This document shows, piece after piece, positions 2,039 through 57,451 of a DNA stretch of 58,341 nucleotides. How positions within the stretch are numbered: position 1 is the stretch's first letter; the number at the start of each line of letters is the position of its first letter. The notes beneath the pieces are model-generated. The model was not told the origin of the DNA and did not search any database. It saw nothing but the letters and a program-made list of their open reading frames with translations. Both the position numbers and the translations under genes were made by a program. The DNA is taken from positions 1-58,341 of the forward strand of contig JAWAHS010000009.1 of the NCBI GenBank assembly GCA_038889075.1, given 5' to 3'. The DNA is from Ignisphaera sp. (GTDB lineage: Archaea; Thermoproteota; Thermoprotei_A; Sulfolobales; Ignisphaeraceae).

Positions 2039-2955
2039 AACCACTTCACTGCATCGAGTATATTGTGTAGAAGTTCATCTGCTATTCTATCCATGGATTC
2101 CACAGTTTCTGCACCTATATGGGGAGTGACTATAACCTTGGGGTGGGCTATGAGTCGTCGGTATATCTCATCCCTCGGTGGTTCCTGCTCCATTACATCA
2201 AGGGCAACACCGCCCAGCCTGTCTAGATGTCTTATAAGGGCTCGTGCATTAACTACCTCTCCACGACTGGTATTGATTATTACAGCACCATCCTTCATAA
2301 GAGATAGCTCGTAGTCGTCTATCATGTGGTATGTAAGTGGTGTTAGAGGTACATGTAGTGTTACTATATCGCTTTCTTTTAAAAGCTCCTCAAAGTTCAC
2401 CTGCACACCCCCTAGCTCCCTAACATCCTTAGATACATCCCTTACATCGTGTACAAGAATGTTCATACCAAATATCTTTGCATATCTTGCAACTCTACTA
2501 CCAATTCTTCCAAAACCTACAATACCTAGATTTTTTCCATAGAGTTCTCTTCCAATGAAGATTCCTTTAGGCCACTCGCCTAGCTTAACTAGATTAATGT
2601 AGTTATAGATATTTCTAAAAACCACTATCATAAGACCTATTGTCAACTCAACAACACTTATACAGGATGCGTTTGGAGCGTTTACAACTGAAATACCCTT
2701 CTTAATCGCGTATTCAACATCAACATTGTCTAAACCAATTCCATATCTAGCTAGTACTCTTAGTCTTTCACCAGCGTCTATCACATCTTTATCGATTCTA
2801 AGCCTGCCTCTAAACACGAGGATACTATACTTGTTGATTATCTCTAGGAGATCACTCCTTTCCAGACCGGGTCTGTAGTCGACACCAAAGCCTCTTCTAC
2901 TAAGTTCGTTTAGAAGTTTTTCTGAAACTCTATCAATTATAAGTACATTTTGCAT
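2035..2955 (-). CDS. serA: D-3-phosphoglycerate dehydrogenase, short form without ACT domain
   Basis: GIGLDNVD, GFGRIG Rossmann motif, INTSRG, LDV, TPHIGA; adjacent aminotransferase. Confidence 0.8.
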   Translation of the reverse strand: MQNVLIIDRVSEKLLNELSRRGFGVDYRPGLERSDLLEIINKYSILVFRGRLRIDKDVIDAGERLRVLARYGIGLDNVDVEYAIKKGISVVNAPNASCISVVELTIGLMIVVFRNIYNYINLVKLGEWPKGIFIGRELYGKNLGIVGFGRIGSRVARYAKIFGMNILVHDVRDVSKDVRELGGVQVNFEELLKESDIVTLHVPLTPLTYHMIDDYELSLMKDGAVIINTSRGEVVNARALIRHLDRLGGVALDVMEQEPPRDEIYRRLIAHPKVIVTPHIGAETVESMDRIADELLHNILDAVKWL

Positions 2956-2963
2956 TCCGACAA
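2937..2963 (-). other. Candidate uORF M-S-E-C-K-M-Y-L overlapping the serA start
   Basis: GGTGG SD, 7 nt, then TTG TCG GAA TGC AAA ATG TAC TTA TAA; the serA ATG is in its -1 frame, 15 nt from the SD. Confidence 0.45.
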
Positions 2964-7459: not shown

Positions 7460-8683
7460 CTTGGAAACATAGGTAATTTAAATGAAGCAGTAACTAGAAG
7501 AATATTCAGAGAAGGGGTTCTCCTAAGATGCATACAGTGCGGATACACATACGATCCGGATCCATTCACAATAATATGTCCCAGATGTAGAGGATTACTA
7601 GAGGTGGTAATGCCTAGCATAACAGATTTTGATATGAAAACTGCTAGAATGAGAAGATTTGGTGTATGGAGGTATAGAGAGCTTCTGCCACTAAACGATA
7701 AAGTAACTCCGGTAACACTTAATGAAGGAGGGACGCCATTGATACCGCTGACGAGGGCTATCACTGGATCCTTTAGAGTTTATGTAAAGTTTGAAGGTGG
7801 CAATCCTACAGGGAGTTTTAAGGACAGAGGGATGACAGTAGGAGTAACGATAGCTAAGAGTATTGGTGTTGAAGGGGTTATTGTTGCAAGTACAGGTAAT
7901 ACAGCAGCATCTGCAGCAGCTTATGCAGCTAGAGCGGGTTTAAAGTGCATTGTTGTATTACCTAGGGGAGCTGTAGCCAAGGGTAAGGTAGCTCAGGCAC
8001 TACTACATGGAGCAGAAATTAGAGAAGTTGATGGTGTATTCGATGATGCATTGGAAGACGTATTTACAGAGGTGGTCATGAATGGTGGACGGAAACTGTA
8101 TCCACTAAATTCATATAATCCATGGCGCTTAGAAGGTCAGAAAACAATAGCATTTGAAATCGTTGATGAGCTCGGCTCCGCACCAGACACCGTAATCGTA
8201 CCAGTTGGCAACGCAGGTAATATATCCGCTATTTGGAAGGGATTCAAGGAGCTCTACAGCTATGGCTTAATAAACCGACTTCCTAGAATGATTGGCGTCC
8301 AAGCGACCGGTTCGGCTCCACTTGCAATAACATGGGAATCTAAAGTAGATAAACTCCATGTTATAGAGAATCCACAGACTATAGCTTCAGCTATAAGAAT
8401 TGGTAAACCTGTAAACTGGTTAAAGGCACTAAAGGCTGTTAAGGAGTCCAATGGTGCCTTCATAAAGGTGACAGACGATGAGATTCTGGCTGCAATGAGG
8501 ATGCTAGCTGTATTGGAAGGTATAGGTGTTGAACCGGCTAGTGCTGCATCGTTTGCAGGTTTTATAAAACTAGCTAATAGAGGTCTCATAGATAAAGATG
8601 AAGTTGTTGTTCTGATAGCAACAGGACATGCTCTGAAGGATCCAGATATAATACTCAGTAAAATTATTATAGGGGTGCCGTAG
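7460..8683 (+). CDS. thrC: Threonine synthase with N-terminal zinc ribbon; true start unresolved
   Basis: NPTGSFKDRG, ASTGNT, EGQKT, PVGNAGN. The frame is open from 7445 and encodes LRCIQCGYTY..CPRCRGLLEV upstream of the first NTG (7604). Confidence 0.9.
   Translation, partial: LGNIGNLNEAVTRRIFREGVLLRCIQCGYTYDPDPFTIICPRCRGLLEVVMPSITDFDMKTARMRRFGVWRYRELLPLNDKVTPVTLNEGGTPLIPLTRAITGSFRVYVKFEGGNPTGSFKDRGMTVGVTIAKSIGVEGVIVASTGNTAASAAAYAARAGLKCIVVLPRGAVAKGKVAQALLHGAEIREVDGVFDDALEDVFTEVVMNGGRKLYPLNSYNPWRLEGQKTIAFEIVDELGSAPDTVIVPVGNAGNISAIWKGFKELYSYGLINRLPRMIGVQATGSAPLAITWESKVDKLHVIENPQTIASAIRIGKPVNWLKALKAVKESNGAFIKVTDDEILAAMRMLAVLEGIGVEPASAASFAGFIKLANRGLIDKDEVVVLIATGHALKDPDIILSKIIIGVP
7461..7472 (+). 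other. Candidate uORF M-E-T in front of thrC
   Basis: GGTGA SD (7451-7455), 5 nt, then TTG GAA ACA TAG; the thrC frame is -1 relative to it. Confidence 0.55.
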
Positions 8684-22587: not shown

Positions 22588-22605
22588 CTATAGTGTTTGG
22601 CGCAT
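22588..22605 (-). other. Candidate uORF M-R-Q-T-L in front of thrB
   Basis: GAGGTGG SD, 5 nt, then ATG CGC CAA ACA CTA TAG; the thrB frame is -1 and open across it. Confidence 0.55.
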
Positions 22606-46666: not shown

Positions 46667-47317
46667 TTATTCATTAAAGTAGTTGAATATAGAGTCTATC
46701 AATCTTTTTAACTGCTTATAATGGATCTGTCCCTTGGCTGTGGGAACATCTATATAACCATAAACTAATCTGGAACCCAGTAATGCGTATGCTATTCTCT
46801 CGAGCGGGTCTACAGACATTGGAAAGGCTGCTATGTTATTCCCTAGATCAAGGATCTTGACTAGAAATTCCCTGTATCCAGGGAAGGGTTCAACTACTAT
46901 CTTTATAATGAAAGCTCTATCCCTATATCTAAGCACCCTCTCTACCACATAATCTAGATCAGGTTTTGAACCAATAAAGTGCATGGATACGATAGCATTG
47001 TTGTATTCGACACCGAACTTCTCTATGAAGGATATTTCAACATCGTATAGAATTCCTAAGTTTTTTAAGATATTTAGTAATCTTATTTTTGTCTCTGGAT
47101 CGTGTGGCTTTGCACCTCCTTCACTAAACTCTCTAAGTGTTACGATAATCTTTCTATTCATCAATACACTATAATCTATTTCGAGAGGGTTGTCCATATA
47201 ATCAACTCTAAGTTCAACAAAATCTGCATCATCTATAGACACCACATTCAATACATCATATACATTTAGAATAGGTTTTGATGCAACTATAAACGGTCTG
47301 GATTGCCTACCCATCAT
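46667..47317 (-). CDS. aroD: Type I 3-dehydroquinate dehydratase
   Basis: ADFVELRVD, IVTLR..SEGG, VSMH, IKI, GQ; last gene of the aro operon. Confidence 0.85.
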   Translation of the reverse strand: MMGRQSRPFIVASKPILNVYDVLNVVSIDDADFVELRVDYMDNPLEIDYSVLMNRKIIVTLREFSEGGAKPHDPETKIRLLNILKNLGILYDVEISFIEKFGVEYNNAIVSMHFIGSKPDLDYVVERVLRYRDRAFIIKIVVEPFPGYREFLVKILDLGNNIAAFPMSVDPLERIAYALLGSRLVYGYIDVPTAKGQIHYKQLKRLIDSIFNYFNE

Positions 47318-47331
47318 AATCGCCGAAATCG

Positions 47332-48570
47332 TTACTGGTTTAAATAAATTCTTCCCCCAATAATCTTTAAGTCTTTCCAAAAGTTAGGGTTGCTCTTGGA
47401 TACGCACTCAGCTTGATCTATAATCCCACCGCTCTTAAGAGCTATCGACGCTGCCATCATAGCTATTCTATGGTCGTCTGGGCAGACAATTTCGCCCTCC
47501 CTAGTATTACCCCCAGTAATCTCAATAAACTCACCTCTATCATAGGCTTCAATACCAAAGCCTCTTAGTGTTGAAACTATGGTATTCCTTCGATCGCTTT
47601 CTTTGATCGATAACCTTTCGATACCTCTAATAACTGTAGTCCCTCTAGCTACCCCAGCCAAAGGTGCTATGGATGGGGCGAGATCTGGGGAATCATCAAC
47701 ATCCACTTCTATTGCTCTATAGCTATCACCAGCCTCAACATACCAAATGCCATCTCTATATATGCTTACGGCATTCATAGATCTATATATATCGATTATG
47801 CTATGGTCACCAAAAAAGCTATAGGGCTTTGGTAATCCATGTATAGATAGATAGCCACCTGTAAGTAGAGCAGCTACAGCGTAGAATGAAGCTAAAAGAT
47901 AGTCGCCAGGTATGGAGCCCTTATATGGGGCAATCTCCTTGGATGCTTCGACATCAATTCTATTACCATGTATATGAACGGTTCCGCCTAGACTGTTTAT
48001 AATCTCAGCAGTCAAATTTATATAGCTTCTAGAGGAGATCTTCCCTCTAATGTTTATACTACCACCTCCAGCCATTATCAATGCTATCATAAGACCAGTT
48101 ATGTACTGGCTACTCTCACCGCCATATATATCGATACAGGTATCTCTAACCCTTCCCTCCATGGTAATGGGAAGGGTGGTACCAGAAAAGCGAATGCCTT
48201 TCTCACTAAGGGCATCAACTATGGCATTCAATGGTCTTCTTCTAAGACCTTTACCACCATCGATGGTGATTCTACCACCTACTACAGCCGCTATTGGTAT
48301 GAAGATTCTTAAAACAGTTGCAGATCCTCTAAAATATACATAGTCTCTATACAGTTTGAGAAATGACGGTTTATAGAACCTTCTTCCGTCAGTAATAACA
48401 TTGAATACGCCTATGGCATCTAGAGCATCTAGAACATCCTCCGATAAGGTTAGATTATCTATTGTTATATTGGTTAGTAGAGATAGGAACAACAATCTTA
48501 TTGCCCAGCTTTTAGATTGAGGCGCAGATATAGAACCTTTGATGGTGGATCTCTCTAGGACAACCCTCAC
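47332..48570 (-). CDS. aroA: EPSP synthase
   Basis: QSKS, LRRRP, SSQY, PGD, DSPD, KESDR, DDHRIAM, KSNP. Confidence 0.92.
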   Translation of the reverse strand: MRVVLERSTIKGSISAPQSKSWAIRLLFLSLLTNITIDNLTLSEDVLDALDAIGVFNVITDGRRFYKPSFLKLYRDYVYFRGSATVLRIFIPIAAVVGGRITIDGGKGLRRRPLNAIVDALSEKGIRFSGTTLPITMEGRVRDTCIDIYGGESSQYITGLMIALIMAGGGSINIRGKISSRSYINLTAEIINSLGGTVHIHGNRIDVEASKEIAPYKGSIPGDYLLASFYAVAALLTGGYLSIHGLPKPYSFFGDHSIIDIYRSMNAVSIYRDGIWYVEAGDSYRAIEVDVDDSPDLAPSIAPLAGVARGTTVIRGIERLSIKESDRRNTIVSTLRGFGIEAYDRGEFIEITGGNTREGEIVCPDDHRIAMMAASIALKSGGIIDQAECVSKSNPNFWKDLKIIGGRIYLNQ

Positions 48571-48809
48571 TTCTCATCACCAATAGTTAGATTTTGTTTC
48601 ATGGAGACTATAGGGATTCGCCGATCTAGGAATAAGAAGAGCTGCCGATCCAGAGGCTGATGGTAGATAGAGTGAGGTGAATAGATCGCTTGGGAGTAGA
48701 TATGTGATCTGATGGTGTACCAGATCTTTGAGAAACGATGCATAGAGCTACAGAACTTGATCGAAGAGCGGGAGCTTAAGAGTGAGGAAACCAGAGGTAT
48801 GAAACACAT
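48567..48809 (-). CDS. 80-aa orphan ORF coupled to aroK and aroA (may be non-functional)
   Basis: ATG overlaps the aroK TAA with a GGTG SD upstream; its stop overlaps the aroA GTG; no recognisable motif. Confidence 0.3.
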   Translation of the reverse strand: MCFIPLVSSLLSSRSSIKFCSSMHRFSKIWYTIRSHIYSQAIYSPHSIYHQPLDRQLFLFLDRRIPIVSMKQNLTIGDEK

Positions 48810-49612
48810 TATATATCCACACCGGATGAAATTCTAGCAGGTCTGACTATCTTTACAGAACCATAGTTAGCGAAATATTCTGCTAAAGGACCACCGTCAC
48901 CTTCTCTACATACTGCAAATATCGTTGGCCCATTGCCTGATACACCAGCAGCTAAAGCACCTAATTCGATAGCCCTTCTAACTATATCTTCATCATACCC
49001 CATTATTCTGGCAATAAACAAGCCATTCAATGTCATTGCTCTAAATATATCGCCCGAGTAAGCTAATTCAAATATATATTTAAATAAACTGTGATGTCTT
49101 CTCATTTTTTCAACATCTATATTCTTTCTAGTACCCTTGAATAGCAGAACCACATCAAGATCGTCTCTAAAATCGGTAACCCTTAGTATGGACATGTTAA
49201 GATTGTCTGTAAATACTATGCCTCCATAGAAAGCAGCTGATGCATCATCTAGTGCACCAGTAATAGATACCCCAGCTATTTTTGAGAGTTCAGCGGCTAA
49301 TCTAGGAATAGAGGGTTCATATATACCGAATCTATCGATTATAGATCTGATTGTCGCTACGGCAACGGCGCTACTGCTTTTAAGACCACTTGATTGCGGA
49401 ATCTCTGAGTATATATCTACCCTAGATGGAGGTAGAGTATATTTCTCTACAAAATAGTCTATTATTGTCTCTATAAGAGGTGAAGGATAGGTACATACAT
49501 TCTCATTTTCACATACGCTAACCTCGACATAGGTTTTAAGATCAATAGCCATTACAGAGCCGAGCCACGCTGGTATAGCATTGACTATCGAAATCCCTCC
49601 GTATGCGTACAT
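48809..49612 (-). CDS. aroK: Archaeal (GHMP-type) shikimate kinase
   Basis: [39 protein letters not shown]. Confidence 0.92.
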
Positions 49613-50757
49613 AGCTCTCTATACCACCTCCACCTGTTAGAGATGGCATTTGCTATATCATCAGATATCTTAACCATAGGTAGCAGACCAGATCTCATTA
49701 CATGATCTGCTATTACAAGGGCTGTCATTGCTTCAACAACAGCGACTCCCCTTATACCTATACACGGATCGTGTCTTCCTTTGATAATTATTGTTTTCTC
49801 TTCTTGGGTTCTCAAATCAACTGTTTTTTGGGGTTTACCTATAGAGCTTGTTGGTCTAAATGCACATCTAAATACTATAGGCTCGCCAGTGGTGATGCCA
49901 CCTAGTATGCCACCGCTATAGTTATAGAGCCATCCAATTCTGGAACCCCTAACTATAATCTCATCTAGAACGCTACTGCCTTTAGCTTTCGCATACTCAA
50001 ATCCGAGACCTATTTCAAAGCCTACAACACCTGGAATAGACATTACGGCTTTAGCTAGGTCAGCCTTAACTTTATCAAATACTGGTTCACCTAGACCAGC
50101 AGGAGGATTCTTTACAACTACTTGGACGGTCGCACCATAGCTATCACCATCCCTAATAGCGCCCTCGATCATTTTAATAAATACCTCCTCATACCTCTTC
50201 ATACATGGTTTAACTGGACTACATCTAGAGCTGAGCGCATCTTCAAATGTTACATCATCAACTATTTCAGCATCTCCTATGGATTTTACGCACCCAGCAA
50301 TCCACACATCCAAGGCCATCAATAACTTCTTTGCTATAGCACCAGCAGCGACTCTTGCAACCGTCTCCCTACCACTGGCTCTTCCACCACCTCTATAATC
50401 CCAATTTTCAAATCCGTATCTGATAATGTATGGAAGATCTGCATGTCCAGGTCTTGGTGTAAATCTTATTTCTTCATAATAGGAGAAGTCTACATCAGTG
50501 TTCCTCACAATAATTGCTATAGGTGCTCCTGTGGTTCTACCATTAAATACACCAGATAGAATTTCTACCTTATCCTCCTCCCTTCTAGGGGAAACAAATC
50601 GATAGCCGGGTCTACGAAAAGAGAGCTCATATTCTATATCGCTACCATCTAGAGGTAAGCCAGCTGGTACACCATCTATAACTACACCGACTGCGGATCC
50701 ATGGCTTTCCCCAAAGGTTGTAATTCTAAGGAATTTACCAAATGAATTTCCTGCCAT
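49585..50757 (-). CDS. aroC: Chorismate synthase
   Basis: [38 protein letters not shown]. Confidence 0.96.
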
Positions 50758-51532
50758 AGAGATACCCTATGACCCTATCTTCGGGAAAGTAAATTCCATT
50801 CCATATTTTTTGAGATTCAATAGCTTGTCGTACAAGCACTTCAATTCCGTTGACGATTTTTACACCTCTATTCTTAGCTTTTCTAACTAATATAGTTTCA
50901 ACAGGTGTGTAGACAAGTTCTACAACGAGCTTAGCTGTAAGACAGCTATCATGTACATAGGATGGATTTGGAGTCGCATTTACAACAATATCAACACTAT
51001 CCGTGCATGTGTTCCCTACATAAGCCTCATAACCTAATCTACCAAGCCTCCTAACGAGTTCTACAGCTCTTTCAACACTTCTATTCACAATAAAGAGCTT
51101 ACATCCGAGATCTCCGAGAGCTACTGCAGAAGCTTTTGCAGCCCCGCCAGCTCCATAGATATAGCAGATCATACCAGCGATGCTTCCCATTTTCTCATTA
51201 ACAAGACTCTTAATAGCTATGTAGTCCGTATTGTATCCGCGTCCTCTATGTATGGTGTTTACAGCTCCGATCCTTTCACTATTATGATCAATATCATTTA
51301 GAAACTCGATCACCTTTTCTTTATATGGTATAGTGATGTTAATACCTTCACAGAGGTCAATTATAGTATAGATATCCCTTCCAAATTTTTCTTCAGGTAT
51401 ATCGAATGCTAGATATATAGCATTATATCCGGTTTCCTGAAATATATAGTTATGTATAGCGGGCGATAGTGTATACGATATATTATGCCCAACTAAACCA
51501 AATAGTTTTGTATTTGCATTTATCCAAGACAT
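50735..51532 (-). CDS. aroE: Shikimate dehydrogenase
   Basis: [32 protein letters not shown]. Confidence 0.93.
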
Positions 51533-52584
51533 CTTTCCACAGCCGATCTCAATTCATCAATTGAAATCCTATAGAGGGTCCATGAACCTAACGATAATGG
51601 TATTGGAAGAAATATGTAGTCACCATGTCTCTTCTTGTCCTTTAGCATTGCACTAAATAGAATTTGTTTATCAACTTCAATATCCAGTTCGTCTACTGAT
51701 GTGGGTAACCCATACTTCTTTAGAATATTTGTAAGCTCAATTAAAACCTCTCTATCCGTAATGCTAAGGTCTGTTCCAATAGTGGCTTCACATACCATAC
51801 CAATGGCTATGGCCATTCCATGAGGTATTGTGAAATTGGTTACAGCCTCTATTGCATGCCCGATTGTGTGGCCATAGTTTAGCACCATCCTTGTATTTTG
51901 TAACTCATATGGATCCCGCTTAACTATAGATACCTTATTGAGTGTTGATCTATATATTATGTATTCGATAGCTTCGTAATCTCTAGCGAGAATTCTAGCA
52001 CTATTTTCAGATAGATATCTAAATAGTTCACAGTCTAGGACAGTACCATATTTTATAACTTCAGCAAGACCATTTACAAACTCTCTTTCTGGTAGTGTAT
52101 CCAGATAGAGTAGATCGGATATGACAATATATGGTTGATAGAATGAGCCCACAACATTTTTAATGCCATGAAAGTTGATAGCATTCTTGCCACCGAGGGC
52201 AGCGTCAACCATACCAAGCAGTGTTGTAGGTATGTTTATCAATCTAATACCTCTCATATATATAGATGCAGCAAACCCTGCAACATCTGTAAGTGCTCCT
52301 CCTCCGAGAGCAATTATGTAATCTTTTCTTTGAAATTCTTTTTCAGAAAGGAATTGCACTATTTGCATAACTATACTTAAGTCTTTAGCCTGTTCACCTC
52401 CAGGTAAAACAATTTCGAATAGTTTAGTTTTTACTGCATCCACTACGTACCTTGGATCGACTGCATCCTGTCTGATTAGCAGAACCTTTCCACTAATTTC
52501 ATTCTCTAGAACCTTTCTGGTTATGGCTCTACCTATAAATACCTTTGTATTCGAACAACATATAGATTCTTCTACTACTTTCAT
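51520..52584 (-). CDS. aroB: 3-dehydroquinate synthase
   Basis: GE..K, GGGALTDVAGF, PTTLL..VDAALGGK, EVIK, LNYGHTIGHAIE, HG.A. Confidence 0.95.
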   Translation of the reverse strand: MKVVEESICCSNTKVFIGRAITRKVLENEISGKVLLIRQDAVDPRYVVDAVKTKLFEIVLPGGEQAKDLSIVMQIVQFLSEKEFQRKDYIIALGGGALTDVAGFAASIYMRGIRLINIPTTLLGMVDAALGGKNAINFHGIKNVVGSFYQPYIVISDLLYLDTLPEREFVNGLAEVIKYGTVLDCELFRYLSENSARILARDYEAIEYIIYRSTLNKVSIVKRDPYELQNTRMVLNYGHTIGHAIEAVTNFTIPHGMAIAIGMVCEATIGTDLSITDREVLIELTNILKKYGLPTSVDELDIEVDKQILFSAMLKDKKRHGDYIFLPIPLSLGSWTLYRISIDELRSAVERCLG

Positions 52585-53570
52585 ATATATCTCCCTATGG
52601 CCTCAGCAACAGCTTTAGCTCTCCTCATGATATTCTCAAACTCTTCAATATTCAATTGCTGTTCAGCATCGCTTAGAGCTTTTTCAGGATTTGTATGAAC
52701 CTCAATTATAAGCATGTCCGCTCCGGCTGCTATACCTGCTAATGCAAGCGGTTCAACTATATCTTTCCTACCTGCAGGATGGCTTGGATCCAAAGCTATA
52801 GGCAGATGCGTTAGTGTTTTTGCCACTGCAAATCCAGCTATATCTAAGGTAAATCTAGTGCTTTTTTCAAACGTTCTTATACCTCTCTCACAAAGCACAA
52901 CACTACCATTACCTTCTAGAAGCACGTATTCTGCTGTAAGAATCCATTCTTCAACAGTCATGCCAAATCCACGTTTAAGAAGCACTGGCTTTTTAAGCTT
53001 ACCAACCTCTTTAAGAAGGCTATAGTTTTGAGCATTTCTAGCACCAATCTGAATCATATCAGCATATTTAGCTACAAGGCTAACGTCTCTTACATCCATA
53101 ACCTCTGTAACAACGGGTAGACCTACGACCTCCGATGCTCTTTTAAGTATCTTCAAACCCTCTTCACCAAGACCTTGAAAAGAGTAGGGGCTGGTTCTAG
53201 GCTTGAATGCTCCACCCCTTAGTATCTGAGCACCTACTCTCTTAACAGCCTTTGCAATCTCAATCATCTGTGTCTCACTTTCAACGGCACAGGGACCAGC
53301 TGCTATGATTATACCTCTACCACCTACTTCAACATCACCAACATTAACAGTAGTTTTATCCTTCCATTCGTTTGATGCCAATTGATACGGCCTTTTTGTC
53401 TTTACTTTAATCTTTATGGATTTATCATCTATTCTTTCAACAAGACTATCGGGCCATGCAATCACGAGTCTTACTCCGTATATATCTACAATCCTATATG
53501 ATGCTGAAACATTCTCTATTTTTTCTATCAGTGATGAATACTGTAAATTTTCTTTTAAAATGAATATCAT
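52581..53570 (-). CDS. aroF: DAHP synthase, type I-beta
   Basis: AGPCAVE, RGGAFKPRTSPYSFQG, QIGARN, LKRG, CERGIRTF, DPSH. Confidence 0.93.
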   Translation of the reverse strand: MIFILKENLQYSSLIEKIENVSASYRIVDIYGVRLVIAWPDSLVERIDDKSIKIKVKTKRPYQLASNEWKDKTTVNVGDVEVGGRGIIIAAGPCAVESETQMIEIAKAVKRVGAQILRGGAFKPRTSPYSFQGLGEEGLKILKRASEVVGLPVVTEVMDVRDVSLVAKYADMIQIGARNAQNYSLLKEVGKLKKPVLLKRGFGMTVEEWILTAEYVLLEGNGSVVLCERGIRTFEKSTRFTLDIAGFAVAKTLTHLPIALDPSHPAGRKDIVEPLALAGIAAGADMLIIEVHTNPEKALSDAEQQLNIEEFENIMRRAKAVAEAIGRYI

Positions 53571-54610
53571 ATTTGTCTACCTATACTTTCAATTACATCT
53601 TTTAAAACATCAACAGCTTCCTTCCTTACGAATACTGAAAAAGGATTGGTCTTCTGAATTTCGAAAATAACATTCTCTATATGCTTAAGTCTTTCGACAA
53701 TAGTCCTAACTTCCCTATATGTAGGCGTTGAAAGTTTATCTGGATAAATATGTAGTTCCTGGGAAAGTTTTTTCAAAGCCTTTGAAAAAGCAGTGAGATA
53801 GAGGTGTGTAAGAACCTGCACAATGGCCATAGCCTTCTCATGCTCCTCAAGGTCTACTACAACTGGTTCTAATCCAGCAGAAAACCATAGATCAACAACA
53901 TCTTGAAGAACAGTAGCACCCGTCTTGGACGGTATTATAGCAATCTTCTCACCAATAGGTGGTGTAAGAGGTCCGAACAATGGATGCACCGATACGTACA
54001 TGAAGTTGTTCTGCAGGGATTCGCCTTCAAGATAATGGAATACCCATGATTTAGACGACAGGATGTCCATGGCTACTTTATTTCTAAGATGTACAAATAA
54101 TTTGTTTACATAACCGTTCTTATAAGCCTCGAATGACAAAGCCAAGACTATGTATTCACCAAATTCTATAGCTGATTCCAAATCCATATATCTACATCCA
54201 AGAGTTTTGGCCAGCTCTTCAGCTTTATCTAAATTTCTACCAGTTATTACCACTTCGTGACCTACCTTAACAAGTTGCCTTGCAAGTACACTAGCCATAT
54301 TACCATATCCAATGAATGTTACCCGTTTCTGCAACTTCTTCCTACCCCTTAAATTGATCTGCAGACTCTTTGAATATTTTATTAACAAATCCGCTAGGAT
54401 TGAAACAATGTCAACTGGTATGCCATATTCTACAGCGAGCCTTCTCCAATTCATTTTAACCATCAACTCTCGTTCATCATCAGAAATACCTCTACCTTCA
54501 GCATTCTTCACTTCAGCAATTCTCTGAACCATCTCAAGTCTCTCACCTATTAATCGAACTATTTCTCTGTCAATTTCATCTATACGTTTCCTAAGCTCAT
54601 CTATTGTCAT
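53567..54610 (-). CDS. tyrA: Chorismate mutase-prephenate dehydrogenase fusion
   Basis: N-terminal [19 protein letters not shown] (AroQ), [33 protein letters not shown]. Confidence 0.88.
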
Positions 54611-55550
54611 ACTTGATTACCTCCAGACAGGCTTTTACAATGGATCTACTATCTATATTGAAGTATTCTAGGAGCTCCCTTACGCTCTTTGCCGACCTAC
54701 CAAAGGTTCTAGCACCTATAAATCTCATTGGAACTGGATACCTTTCAGCAACAACTTCTGCAACAGCGCTTCCTATACCTCCATAAACCACGTGTTCCTC
54801 AACGGTTACAATACGACCTGTAGCCCTTGCAGCTCTTTCAATACTTTCAACATCGATGGGTTTAACTGTTAGAAGGTTGATAACAGAGGTGCTAATACCC
54901 ATTTTCTCCAGCATCTCAGCCGCAGTTAAAGCCTCATACAATATTGGACCAGCACCAACTATTGTAACATCATAACCGTCTCTCAGTGTATATGCTTTTC
55001 CAAGAGCAAATTCGTAATCATGTCCGACAGTCACAGGTGGTGCATAATCCCTCCCAATTCTATAGTACACAGGTCCCCTTACATCAGCTACTATACTCCT
55101 CAGACTCCTCTTTATATCAGCTATATCTGCAGGAACCACAATATTCATATTTGGTATGGCACGCATAACCGCTATATCTTCAAGTGCTTGATGGCTCGAC
55201 CCATCTGCATGGTCGCTATAGCCAGCATGTGTAGCTATGATCTTTACATTTAGATTCATTCTAGCCACGGTATTTCTTATCTGTTCCCACGCCCTTAGAA
55301 CAAACATCGCGAATGCGGCTACTATAGGCTGTGCGCCAGCTGATGCTAACCCAGCGGCGAAGCCTATCATATGCTGCTCAGCTATTCCAACATTATAGTA
55401 TCTATCTGGAAACTTCTGACCAAATCTATATACTCTTGTTGGTCTTCCAACGTCAGCAGTTATTACCACGAGGTCTCTAACTTCCTCACCAAGGCTAGCC
55501 AGTATCTCTCCAACTACATCACGCATTCCAATGGATTGCTCTACTTTCAT
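54597..55550 (-). CDS. Transketolase C-terminal subunit
   Basis: GIAEQ, RAWEQIR, DGSSHQ..ED, EEH..GGIGS. Confidence 0.93.
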
Positions 55551-56349
55551 CCAGAGGCTCCTCTACAATCTGGTTAATGTTTTCATTGACTGTTTTTACT
55601 CCATGGTTAGCCACAGTTTTAGCAAAGATTACCGTAGGTCTATCCGATTCCAAAGCTTCATTGATAGTGCTCACAATACTTACTATATCATGACCATCAC
55701 ACCACAGGACTCTCCATCCAATAGCACTCCATACAAACGGTAAATAGTATTTTGATTTAACTACCTCAGTTTCACCATCGAGTTGAGAACCGTTCCAGTC
55801 AATTATAACTATAAGATTACTCAGCCTAAGCGTAGCTGCATGCGTTATTGCTTCCCATACCTGACCCTCATCCTGCTCGCCATCACCCATTACAACAAAT
55901 ACTCTTCCATTTCCATTTTTCAATTTAATCCAAGTAGCTATACCTATAGCAAAACTTATGCCTTGTCCGAGGCTACCCGTGGACATGTCTACACCCGGTA
56001 CACCTATATCGGGATGGTTCTGCAGGATAGAATTGATGCTGTTTATTTTGATAAGCTCCTCCTTTGATATAAGACCGATTTCAGCCAAAGTAGCATATAG
56101 AGCTGGGGCAGCGTGACCTTTGCTCAATATAAGCCAGTCTTTATTTAGGGAATCAACATCCCTCTTAATATATTTTGTTAGAAGAGTGGCTATTATATCT
56201 ATAGCGCTTAGAGAGGAAGCGATATGGATATGCTTGTCGTAACTGTACATTAGAACTAGATTCTTTCTGGCATTTGTAGTTACATTCTGAATCTGATTTA
56301 ATTCTTCACCAATGTTTTTCAGTATTGGAGTTGCATCTACCTTCACCAT
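55519..56349 (-). CDS. Transketolase N-terminal subunit
   Basis: [25 protein letters not shown] motif, DGHD. Confidence 0.93.
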
Positions 56350-56360
56350 TGAAATTCCAT
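56343..56360 (-). other. Candidate uORF M-E-F-Q-W at the head of the aromatic operon
   Basis: GGTGG SD, 5 nt, then ATG GAA TTT CAA TGG TGA; the transketolase ATG (56349) is nested in the -1 frame. Confidence 0.6.
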
Positions 56361-56398
56361 TTCGGCCACCACAGGACAGTATATTATACTGGTGTGCC

Positions 56399-56410
56399 TT
56401 TTATAAGTTT
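56399..56410 (-). promoter_or_regulatory. BRE/TATA of the tkt-aro operon
   Basis: AAACTTATAAAA about 28 nt upstream of the SD. Confidence 0.55.
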
Positions 56411-56438
56411 TACTTACTTATATATTTTATACAGATAT

Positions 56439-56453
56439 GTACGATAATGGTAC
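56439..56453. promoter_or_regulatory. Candidate Lrp/LysM-type binding site
   Basis: 15-bp imperfect palindrome GTACGATAATGGTAC upstream of the aro TATA box. Confidence 0.4.
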
Positions 56454-56731
56454 TGGTTACCGTCAAGCATTACTATGAATTCGAATACTATGGGTCAGAT
56501 GTTCTGCTCTGAAGAATCTGAGCTGAAGAATTTATAATTGAATGAGCAAGCTATGTATCAGTAAAAGAAGTCCTTCTAAAGAACGCTATACACTTTGCCT
56601 TGCGTTACGGACGGGTGATCTGTTATTTAGAGTTTTCAATAGTTTAGATTTGAGTACTCTAAATGTGCTATTAAAGTTGATTAATCATTTGACAATTATA
56701 AGTCTGTAAGGTGTTGATGGTGGAAAAGGTG

Positions 56732-57451
56732 CTATAGATTTCTACAGCACAGATCAGATAGAGTACAGTGGTAGCATCTAGGTTTTCTAGCTGTACAGAT
56801 TCTTCTCCCATGAACTATTAGCAGGAGATGGAGTGCAGCGAGACTGTCAATATCGTTATTCAAATAGTTAACTATCTTCATTCTCACATCTTCGTATCTG
56901 TCACTAGATGATGTGATTCCTAATCTTTTTACAACTCTATTTATATGTGTATCGATTGGGAACGTAGGTTTCTTTAAAACCATTAGTAGAAATACATCAG
57001 CTGTTTTAAGACCTACCCCAGGTAGTTCTAGTAGCCTCTTTCTCGCTTCTTTTACATCCATCCGCTCCAGATCTTTGAGATAGTGAGGGTTTTTCTGTAG
57101 AATCACTGCCAATTCCTTTAGAATCCTACTCTTTCTATTAGCTAAGCCTGCTACTCTTATAGCACTCTTCAGCACACTCTCATCGACTATGGCGATATTC
57201 TCATGTGTTATCTCTTTTAATACCGTCTTTAAATTATTGAAAGCCCTTATCGCATTCCTATCGCTTGTATTCTGACTTAATATAATTGCAGTTAGAATTT
57301 CAAAGTAGTTAGGTACGCCGTGCTCTTTATCTAGAGCATTTTTTAGAATAAATTCATCTAAATCCACATTATGTGTTTTAAATAGAATTTCAATGATTTT
57401 CCGAATTCTGCTCTCATTCCATATACATACATTGGAATTCGATTCAGACAT
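56732..57451 (-). CDS. nth: Endonuclease III (HhH-GPD glycosylase, 4Fe-4S)
   Basis: ILSQNT, LLELPGVGLKTAD HhH, FPIDTH, C-x6-C-x2-C-x5-C. Confidence 0.92.
   Translation of the reverse strand: MSESNSNVCIWNESRIRKIIEILFKTHNVDLDEFILKNALDKEHGVPNYFEILTAIILSQNTSDRNAIRAFNNLKTVLKEITHENIAIVDESVLKSAIRVAGLANRKSRILKELAVILQKNPHYLKDLERMDVKEARKRLLELPGVGLKTADVFLLMVLKKPTFPIDTHINRVVKRLGITSSSDRYEDVRMKIVNYLNNDIDSLAALHLLLIVHGRRICTARKPRCYHCTLSDLCCRNL

Follow-up and report, generated by a model that had tools for sequence, protein, structure and literature searches.

The transketolase-aro operon of this Ignisphaera sp. is headed by a pair of mini-ORFs that is a real and conserved regulatory leader. Judging from the sequence, the pair probably serves as an amino-acid-sensing −1 frameshift gate for transketolase, the product of the first gene. 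The earlier note had described a single mini-ORF at this place in the window (the whole stretch of 58,341 nucleotides that was analyzed). That ORF, M-E-F-Q-W*, was read directly in the sequence and stands, yet it is only half of the whole leader element, as a second ORF, M-Q-L-Q-Y*, had been missed together with its Tyr unit, which is the most conserved part. The two ORFs jointly carry all three aromatic codons, each preceded by Glu or Gln.

Layout of the leader

The first leader ORF has the form described previously, a Shine-Dalgarno sequence (SD1) followed by a 5-nt spacer and five codons that include Phe and Trp (Table 1). The transketolase ATG is nested within it at a distance of 16 nt from SD1. 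This ATG has no SD of its own, its duplex with the anti-SD reaching −2.1 kcal/mol compared with −6.3 kcal/mol for the uORF start. The second Shine-Dalgarno sequence (SD2) is built from the Trp and stop codons of leader ORF 1, which also creates a GTGA start/stop overlap, and leader ORF 2 starts six bases past it. The CCAATA core of the second ORF is unchanged across the 10-row leader alignment. In this assembly the 3′ end of the 16S rRNA with the anti-SD occurs twice, 227 nt apart (G000:C19:5103 and 5330, minus strand), probably by assembly duplication.

Archaeal promoter geometry places the predicted transcription start near 56377, 5′ of SD1. Among the loci with a TATA-like match, 64 of 76 have it 36–46 nt 5′ of the leader start. 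The only RNA contig covers 55900–56226, falls short of the leader and cannot show either the leader or the start. The lack of a terminator hairpin, already remarked on before, was borne out: no terminator-like site was found in 55500–56750, and the fold of the leader RNA (56378–56260) was no better than that of shuffled sequences (z 0.51).

Downstream of the transketolase N-terminal subunit, the NCBIfam scan identified the transketolase C subunit, chorismate mutase/prephenate dehydrogenase, and DAHP synthase. The next six ORFs were named aroB, aroE, aroC, aroK, aroA, and aroD-like by reading their translations. An assembly error as the source of the frame offset was ruled out, as three other DNA assemblies from three studies contain no indel in the leader and the arrangement is conserved in relatives, including single-contig genomes.

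Table 1. Positions of the leader elements, the operon and the sister leaders in the window
Feature	Position	Strand	Remarks
BRE-like purine run and TATA box, TTATAAAA	56399..56414; TATA at 56406-56399	−	From sequence
Shine-Dalgarno 1, GGTGG	56366..56370	−	Duplex of −6.3 kcal/mol with the genome's own anti-SD
Leader ORF 1, M-E-F-Q-W*, ATG GAA TTT CAA TGG TGA	56343..56360	−	+1 frame relative to transketolase
Predicted Phe-sensing slip site, G GAA TTT	56352..56358	−	P-site Glu tRNA would re-pair with GGA
Degenerate Trp site, T CAA TGG	56346..56352	−	Holds the nested in-frame ATG at 56349; C CAA TGG in TrpE-bearing relatives
Shine-Dalgarno 2, GGTGA	56343..56347	−	−7.4 kcal/mol; kept as GGTGA/GGTGG in relatives
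Leader ORF 2, M-Q-L-Q-Y*, ATG CAA CTC CAA TAC TGA	56319..56336	−	Same +1 frame as ORF 1
Predicted Tyr-sensing slip site, C CAA TAC	56322..56328	−	14 nt from SD2
Transketolase N-terminal subunit, first gene of the operon	55519..56349	−	Frame open from 56400; NCBIfam scan
Remaining operon genes	46667..55550	−	ORFs, mostly overlapping head to tail
Sister leader ahead of thrB, M-R-Q-T-L*	22588..22605	−	C CAA + Thr
Sister leader ahead of thrC, TTG GAA ACA TAG	7461..7472	+	G GAA + Thr; from the sequence of this window only
Candidate sister leader, TTG TCG GAA TGC...	2937..2963	−	Ser, then G GAA + Cys; from the sequence of this window only

Conservation, reading frame and base context

From 209 collected transketolase loci, 172 distinct ones were analyzed, with 37 dropped as duplicates or as lying too near a contig end; six HTH-fusion loci were treated apart from the others. 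An SD-led Q/E-aromatic unit in the +1 frame occurred at 86 of the 99 archaeal transketolase loci with aro genes nearby, in agreement with the conservation of aromatic codons that the earlier note had proposed as a check. At the same 99 loci the unit was found once in frame 0, never in frame +2, and six times in an internal control window, while none of the 44 bacterial or Micrarchaeota transketolase loci carried it. The leader is therefore not a product of chance. With a second definition of the unit, 88 of the 99 aro loci were positive, covering 27 of 30 genera and all eight families sampled. The 11 loci lacking it by this definition belong mainly to one family (seven of its 10), and four of these exceptions show A-TTG with a Tyr or Trp codon immediately after.

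The nearest named relatives are Ignisphaera. An M-E-F-type ORF was present at all 14 distinct loci of the same genus (M-E-L in one). Across relatives the +1 frame is constant while the distance from the leader to the enzyme core varies, and the leader itself appears as two ORFs, as a fused form (M-Q-H-Q-W-V-E-V-M-E-L-Q-Y-Q), or as a compressed form (M-E-F-Q-Y-Q-W). In 72 of 88 loci the leader ends no more than two codons past its last aromatic codon, and most Sulfolobaceae leaders continue beyond Trp without a stop. The five HTH-transketolase fusions examined at the head of aro operons (L231–L235) carry M-x-N-Q-F-Q-Y in the +1 frame ahead of the HTH. The 23 archaeal loci without aro neighbors comprised three truncated loci with aromatic units, eight Gln-Asn paralogs, and 12 with no such leader.

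Eight of the 88 aro loci, as well as L051 and L059 (10 of 99 in all), have no ATG, GTG, or TTG in frame ahead of the first helix, so that some relatives cannot do without a change of frame. The same absence was found at seven thrB loci and in seven of the eight Gln-Asn transketolase paralogs, and locus L051 has an in-frame stop 5 nt 5′ of its C CAA TAT. An in-frame start is present at the other 80 of the 88 loci, often because CAA TGG spells ATG, and in this genome ATG and GTG both overlap the first leader stop. These in-frame starts are SD-poor, with a median duplex of −2.4 kcal/mol compared with −7.3 kcal/mol for the leader starts, and only seven of the 80 reach −5 kcal/mol.

The base 5′ of CAA-aromatic is C in 143 of 144 sites at the aro loci, supplied by eight different codons, compared with 45 of 265 cases of CAA in neighboring coding sequence; the lone non-C site is the T CAA TGG of this genome. 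C CAA with Tyr accounted for 84 sites and G GAA or G GAG with Phe for 51. A conserved C before CAA and G before GAA would be expected of a P-site tRNA that has to re-pair one base further 5′. The first base of such re-pairing is always matched (C CAA in 143 of 144, and G GAA), and the middle base is a wobble or a mismatch. For CAA re-pairing with CCA the middle base is mismatched, which counts against a slip and is a real weakness. At the thrB leaders of another family, which use C CCT, the −1 re-pairing is perfect.

In the enzyme frame the bases of the Tyr site encode Pro-Ile. The N-terminal Pro-Ile is spelled CCA ATA in 86 of 93 cases compared with six of 42 elsewhere, and with the third positions thus fixed, selection acts on the nucleotides; selection on the N-terminal residues of transketolase was rejected on the same ground. 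Per-position entropy is circular for the CCAATA core, since the sites were selected by that core.

The sites G GAA TTT and C CAA TAC do not form an X XXY YYZ heptamer, and no significant 3′ structure was found in 56378–56260. Across the five main groups, 154 of 200 C-CAA/C-CCT sites lie 9–14 nt from an SD, a spacing that partly arises because the SD concerned is the initiation SD. SDs at 9–14 nt stimulate −1 shifts, and an IS element uses one SD for both initiation and shifting, according to the part of a review that deals with them (PMC5009743). The G-GAA/GAG Phe sites lie mostly 7 nt from the SD, with only eight of 52 in the 9–14 range, which counts against an SD-stimulated slip.

Putative sensed codons and sister leaders

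An intact C CAA TGG or G GAA TGG was found in 59 of 69 genomes with TrpE and in none of the 15 without it, although the genomes are kin and the Fisher P is therefore overstated. Genome G013 lay outside the TrpE search, and nine unit-less loci were excluded from this comparison. Within the genus, the intact Trp site occurred in five of seven genomes with TrpE as opposed to none of six without. A gene missing from a draft assembly is no proof of its loss, but the 15 TrpE-less genomes span four families; the 10 of 69 TrpE genomes lacking a Trp site count against strict tracking. TrpE was not found in this genome, which is 99.6% complete. Because TrpE is lacking and T CAA TGG is the only C-less site of the 144, sensing of Trp is probably vestigial here, with the Trp codon probably kept as part of SD2. 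For the same reasons Phe and Tyr are the likely working inputs. In TrpE-bearing relatives the third site, C CAA TGG, would add a Trp input; in this genome the site has decayed. The earlier note had considered a −1 slip at either G GAA TTT or CAA TGG; the former is the best-fitting route, while the latter lacks the preceding C in a genome without TrpE.

The codon that follows the C CAA or G GAA element changes with the operon. The trpB2 leaders, of the form M-[R/H/F/S]-Q-W, place Trp after SD-start-NNC-CAA(/CCT) in 27 of 30 loci, with one extra Ser match (L245–L274). The annotated trpB2 ATG is the one inside CAA TGG, and this genome has TrpB2 without TrpE (L241, G000:C4:52902, minus strand). 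For the 30 thrB leaders, the codon after CAA/CCT was Thr in 14, Met in two, and no match was found in 14. The 29 leuA leaders divide into C CAA + Leu (8) and A-TTG + Leu (21). Ferredoxin genes that head an aldehyde:ferredoxin oxidoreductase operon have an M-x-Q-W leader in 13 of 13 cases (L305–L317; L243:282-296, G000:C13:36481, plus strand), suggesting a link between the enzyme and Trp supply, e.g., indole-aldehyde metabolism feeding TrpB2. This Trp leader and the Asn variant described below are not obviously end-product control.

Similar leaders occur in this genome ahead of thrB, thrC, serA-like, trpB2, leuA, hisC, and cysS-like genes (cysS by translation). In four same-genus loci the thrB leader (here 22605–22540, minus strand) is followed by another SD-led ORF in the +1 frame, in which Met comes after A AAY or A AAA; this ORF may be a Met sensor of the thr/hom/lysC/asd operon. 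The zinc-ribbon N-terminus of thrC has no in-frame start. The candidate leader of the serA-like gene overlaps the ATG of that gene, and a class-V-type aminotransferase comes next. In two further leaders the cognate codon stands right after the TTG start, namely TTG TGC CAA TAA ahead of the cysteinyl-tRNA synthetase-like gene (G000:C1:44968, minus strand) and TTG CAT CAA TAG ahead of hisC (G000:C3:35046, minus strand).

Outside the aro operon, a transketolase paralog made of two genes carries M-x-[L/F]-Q-N, with Asn in eight loci (L141, L143, L151, L174, L176, L179, L237, and L055), and represents either Asn sensing or a constitutive slip at C CAA AAY. At cimA (L242, G000:C3:22914, minus strand) an in-frame stop lies just 5′ of the first conserved residues, with TAG at the equivalent place in other same-genus genomes. 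The cimA leader, M-V-A-G-G-L-E-I-Q-G*, lies in the other frame and would need a +1 shift, which counts against a uniform −1 scheme. A short ORF, M-E-Q-I-D*, precedes ilvB in the same frame with stops in between (G000:C3, about 26170, minus strand).

A genome scan for SD-led start-NNC-CAA ORFs at gene heads yielded 8 of 75 in the −1 sense and none in the +1 sense, with controls at 4 of 66 and 14 of 222. The scan is a source of leads and not a test, and earlier genome-wide scans were too permissive for a background rate.

Proposed mechanism, alternatives and significance

In the frameshift gate proposed here, translation would begin at the leader, one base out of frame with transketolase. As long as charged tRNA is in good supply, the ribosomes would read through and meet a stop within one or two codons, and little transketolase would be made. 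When Phe or Tyr is short, they would pause with an empty A site at G GAA TTT or C CAA TAC, and the paused P-site tRNA could re-pair at −1 (GAA to GGA, CAA to CCA) and enter the transketolase frame, with a still-paired SD possibly helping the slip. Once the first gene is translated, the genes further down, which overlap, would be turned on in their turn through translational coupling and perhaps also through a lifting of transcriptional polarity.

The same stall could instead lead to re-initiation, in which the short peptidyl-tRNA is dropped and the ribosome restarts on a start-like codon one base back. At each of the three aromatic sites the −1 codon (ATT, ATA, or ATG) resembles a start codon, the leuA A-TTG-Leu units (21 of 29) put ATT in the enzyme frame, and the ATT at 56355 lies 10 nt from SD1. 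Re-initiation of this kind is nonetheless unlikely: C CAA followed by Thr, Leu, or Asn leaves AAC, ACT, or AAA, none of which resembles a start codon, re-initiation would have no use for the almost invariant C 5′ of CAA, and the ATA at 56325 lies 17 nt from SD2.

Termination-reinitiation had been put forward by the earlier note as one way in which the nested start might be used. Here M-E-F-Q-W would be completed, the ribosome would stop at TGA and restart at the overlapping ATG or GTG, and the leader would mainly deliver ribosomes. The motif ATGGTGA combines a −7 ATG overlap with a −4 GTGA overlap, close relatives swap ATG and GTG at this place, and coupling at gene overlaps is shown in archaea in the part of PMC6728339 concerned. 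A stop near an in-frame start exists at only 37 of 88 loci, although this genome has one, and GTGA is a by-product of SD2. Most of the Sulfolobaceae leaders run on past Trp, ten of the 99 loci have no in-frame start, and an ample amino-acid supply would raise enzyme output, the reverse of what end-product control calls for. Because of the 37 of 88, the start-less loci and this reversed sign, termination-reinitiation can hardly be the general mechanism and is very unlikely as the account of the leader, although it may supply basal expression in this genus.

A stalled ribosome might also act on transcription by blocking premature termination or an RNA-binding factor, with transketolase starting independently at the nested ATG. 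Such logic is that of the bacterial attenuators, and transcriptional polarity on untranslated RNA is known in archaea. This reading is very improbable in view of the missing hairpin or terminator, and it leaves the fixed +1 frame, the C or G before the P-site codon and the start-less genes unexplained. Finally, it is hardly credible that the conserved bases are a DNA operator or a constitutive low-level recoding site without sensing, for although the palindrome TGGAATTCCA is present in the M-E-F-Q leaders of many relatives and a slip at C CAA AAY, the Asn variant, might be constitutive, the palindrome is not found in the trpB2, thrB, and many aro leaders, an operator would have no need to keep frame, and the switching of codons with the operon together with the co-loss with TrpE points to decoding.

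The frameshift gate has parts in common with several known systems. The bacterial attenuators pheL, trpL, and thrL use runs of codons and terminator/antiterminator hairpins. Like them, the leader places a mini-ORF that contains codons for the end products 5′ of a biosynthetic operon, so that the resemblance to pheL and trpL drawn in the earlier note holds for the logic and not for the machinery. Its F, W, and Y codons stand alone, almost always behind Q or E, instead of in tandem runs, it lacks alternative hairpins and a U-run, and it overlaps the first gene in a fixed frame; without a hairpin it is not an attenuator of the pheL/trpL type.

The +1 autoregulation of prfB (release factor 2), as outlined in part of PMC5009743, likewise has a short ORF1, with an SD-like sequence ahead of the site and a product in the other frame, and it senses through slow decoding in the A site, as the leader would. 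The shift of prfB is +1 at a stop codon with the SD 3 nt upstream, whereas the leader geometry requires −1 at an end-product sense codon, its SD is the initiation SD at mostly 7 nt (G GAA) or 9–14 nt (C CAA), and several units are chained. The leader is most likely a sensor-type frameshifting element like prfB with a purpose like that of pheL/trpL, and belongs to neither class.

A parallel for the slip itself is the hungry-codon leftward shift (Gallant and Lindsley 1992, as cited in passages of PMC8211752 and PMC5009743), in which a single P-site tRNA slips next to an empty A site under aminoacyl-tRNA limitation and no 3′ stimulator is needed. That shift is described there from starvation experiments in E. 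coli, while the one predicted for the leader looks selected and regulatory. In Saccharolobus, a member of the same order, fucA1 shows a −1 shift, but it is a split glycosidase gene and not the leader of an amino-acid operon, as far as the relevant part of PMC8211752 describes it. Tar (TK0271) and TrpY similarly control archaeal aro and trp operons and differ in being proteins that act on DNA (PMC6737238, in the part on these regulators). A search of the full-text literature, with most subscription journals outside its coverage, found no published report of this leader.

Crenarchaeota with aro and trp operons mostly lack Tar and TrpY and may use a third mechanism, in the account given in part of PMC6737238. 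The leader is a concrete candidate that could fill this gap in crenarchaeal aro/trp control. It is on balance plausible that Thermoprotei without Tar or TrpY run much of their amino-acid regulon via modular ribosome-slip cassettes (SD-start-NNC-CAA-X, start-GAA-X, and A-TTG-X) in which codon X is the sensed amino acid. The aro leader would then be a switch with several inputs, made of chained Phe, Tyr, and Trp units, in which point mutations retune the response after a pathway branch has been lost, as with the Trp unit here. A further implication is that, for several biosynthetic genes that stand first in their operons in Sulfolobales, the start codon has been mis-called or is missing. If the frameshift gate is true, nature would be using hungry-codon frameshifting for regulation, whereas the section of a 2016 review on the subject knew of no use of it in making starvation-specific trans-frame proteins (PMC5009743). 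The gate would also widen archaeal −1 frameshifting well past fucA1, called the only reported archaeal case in a passage of a 2021 paper (PMC8211752).
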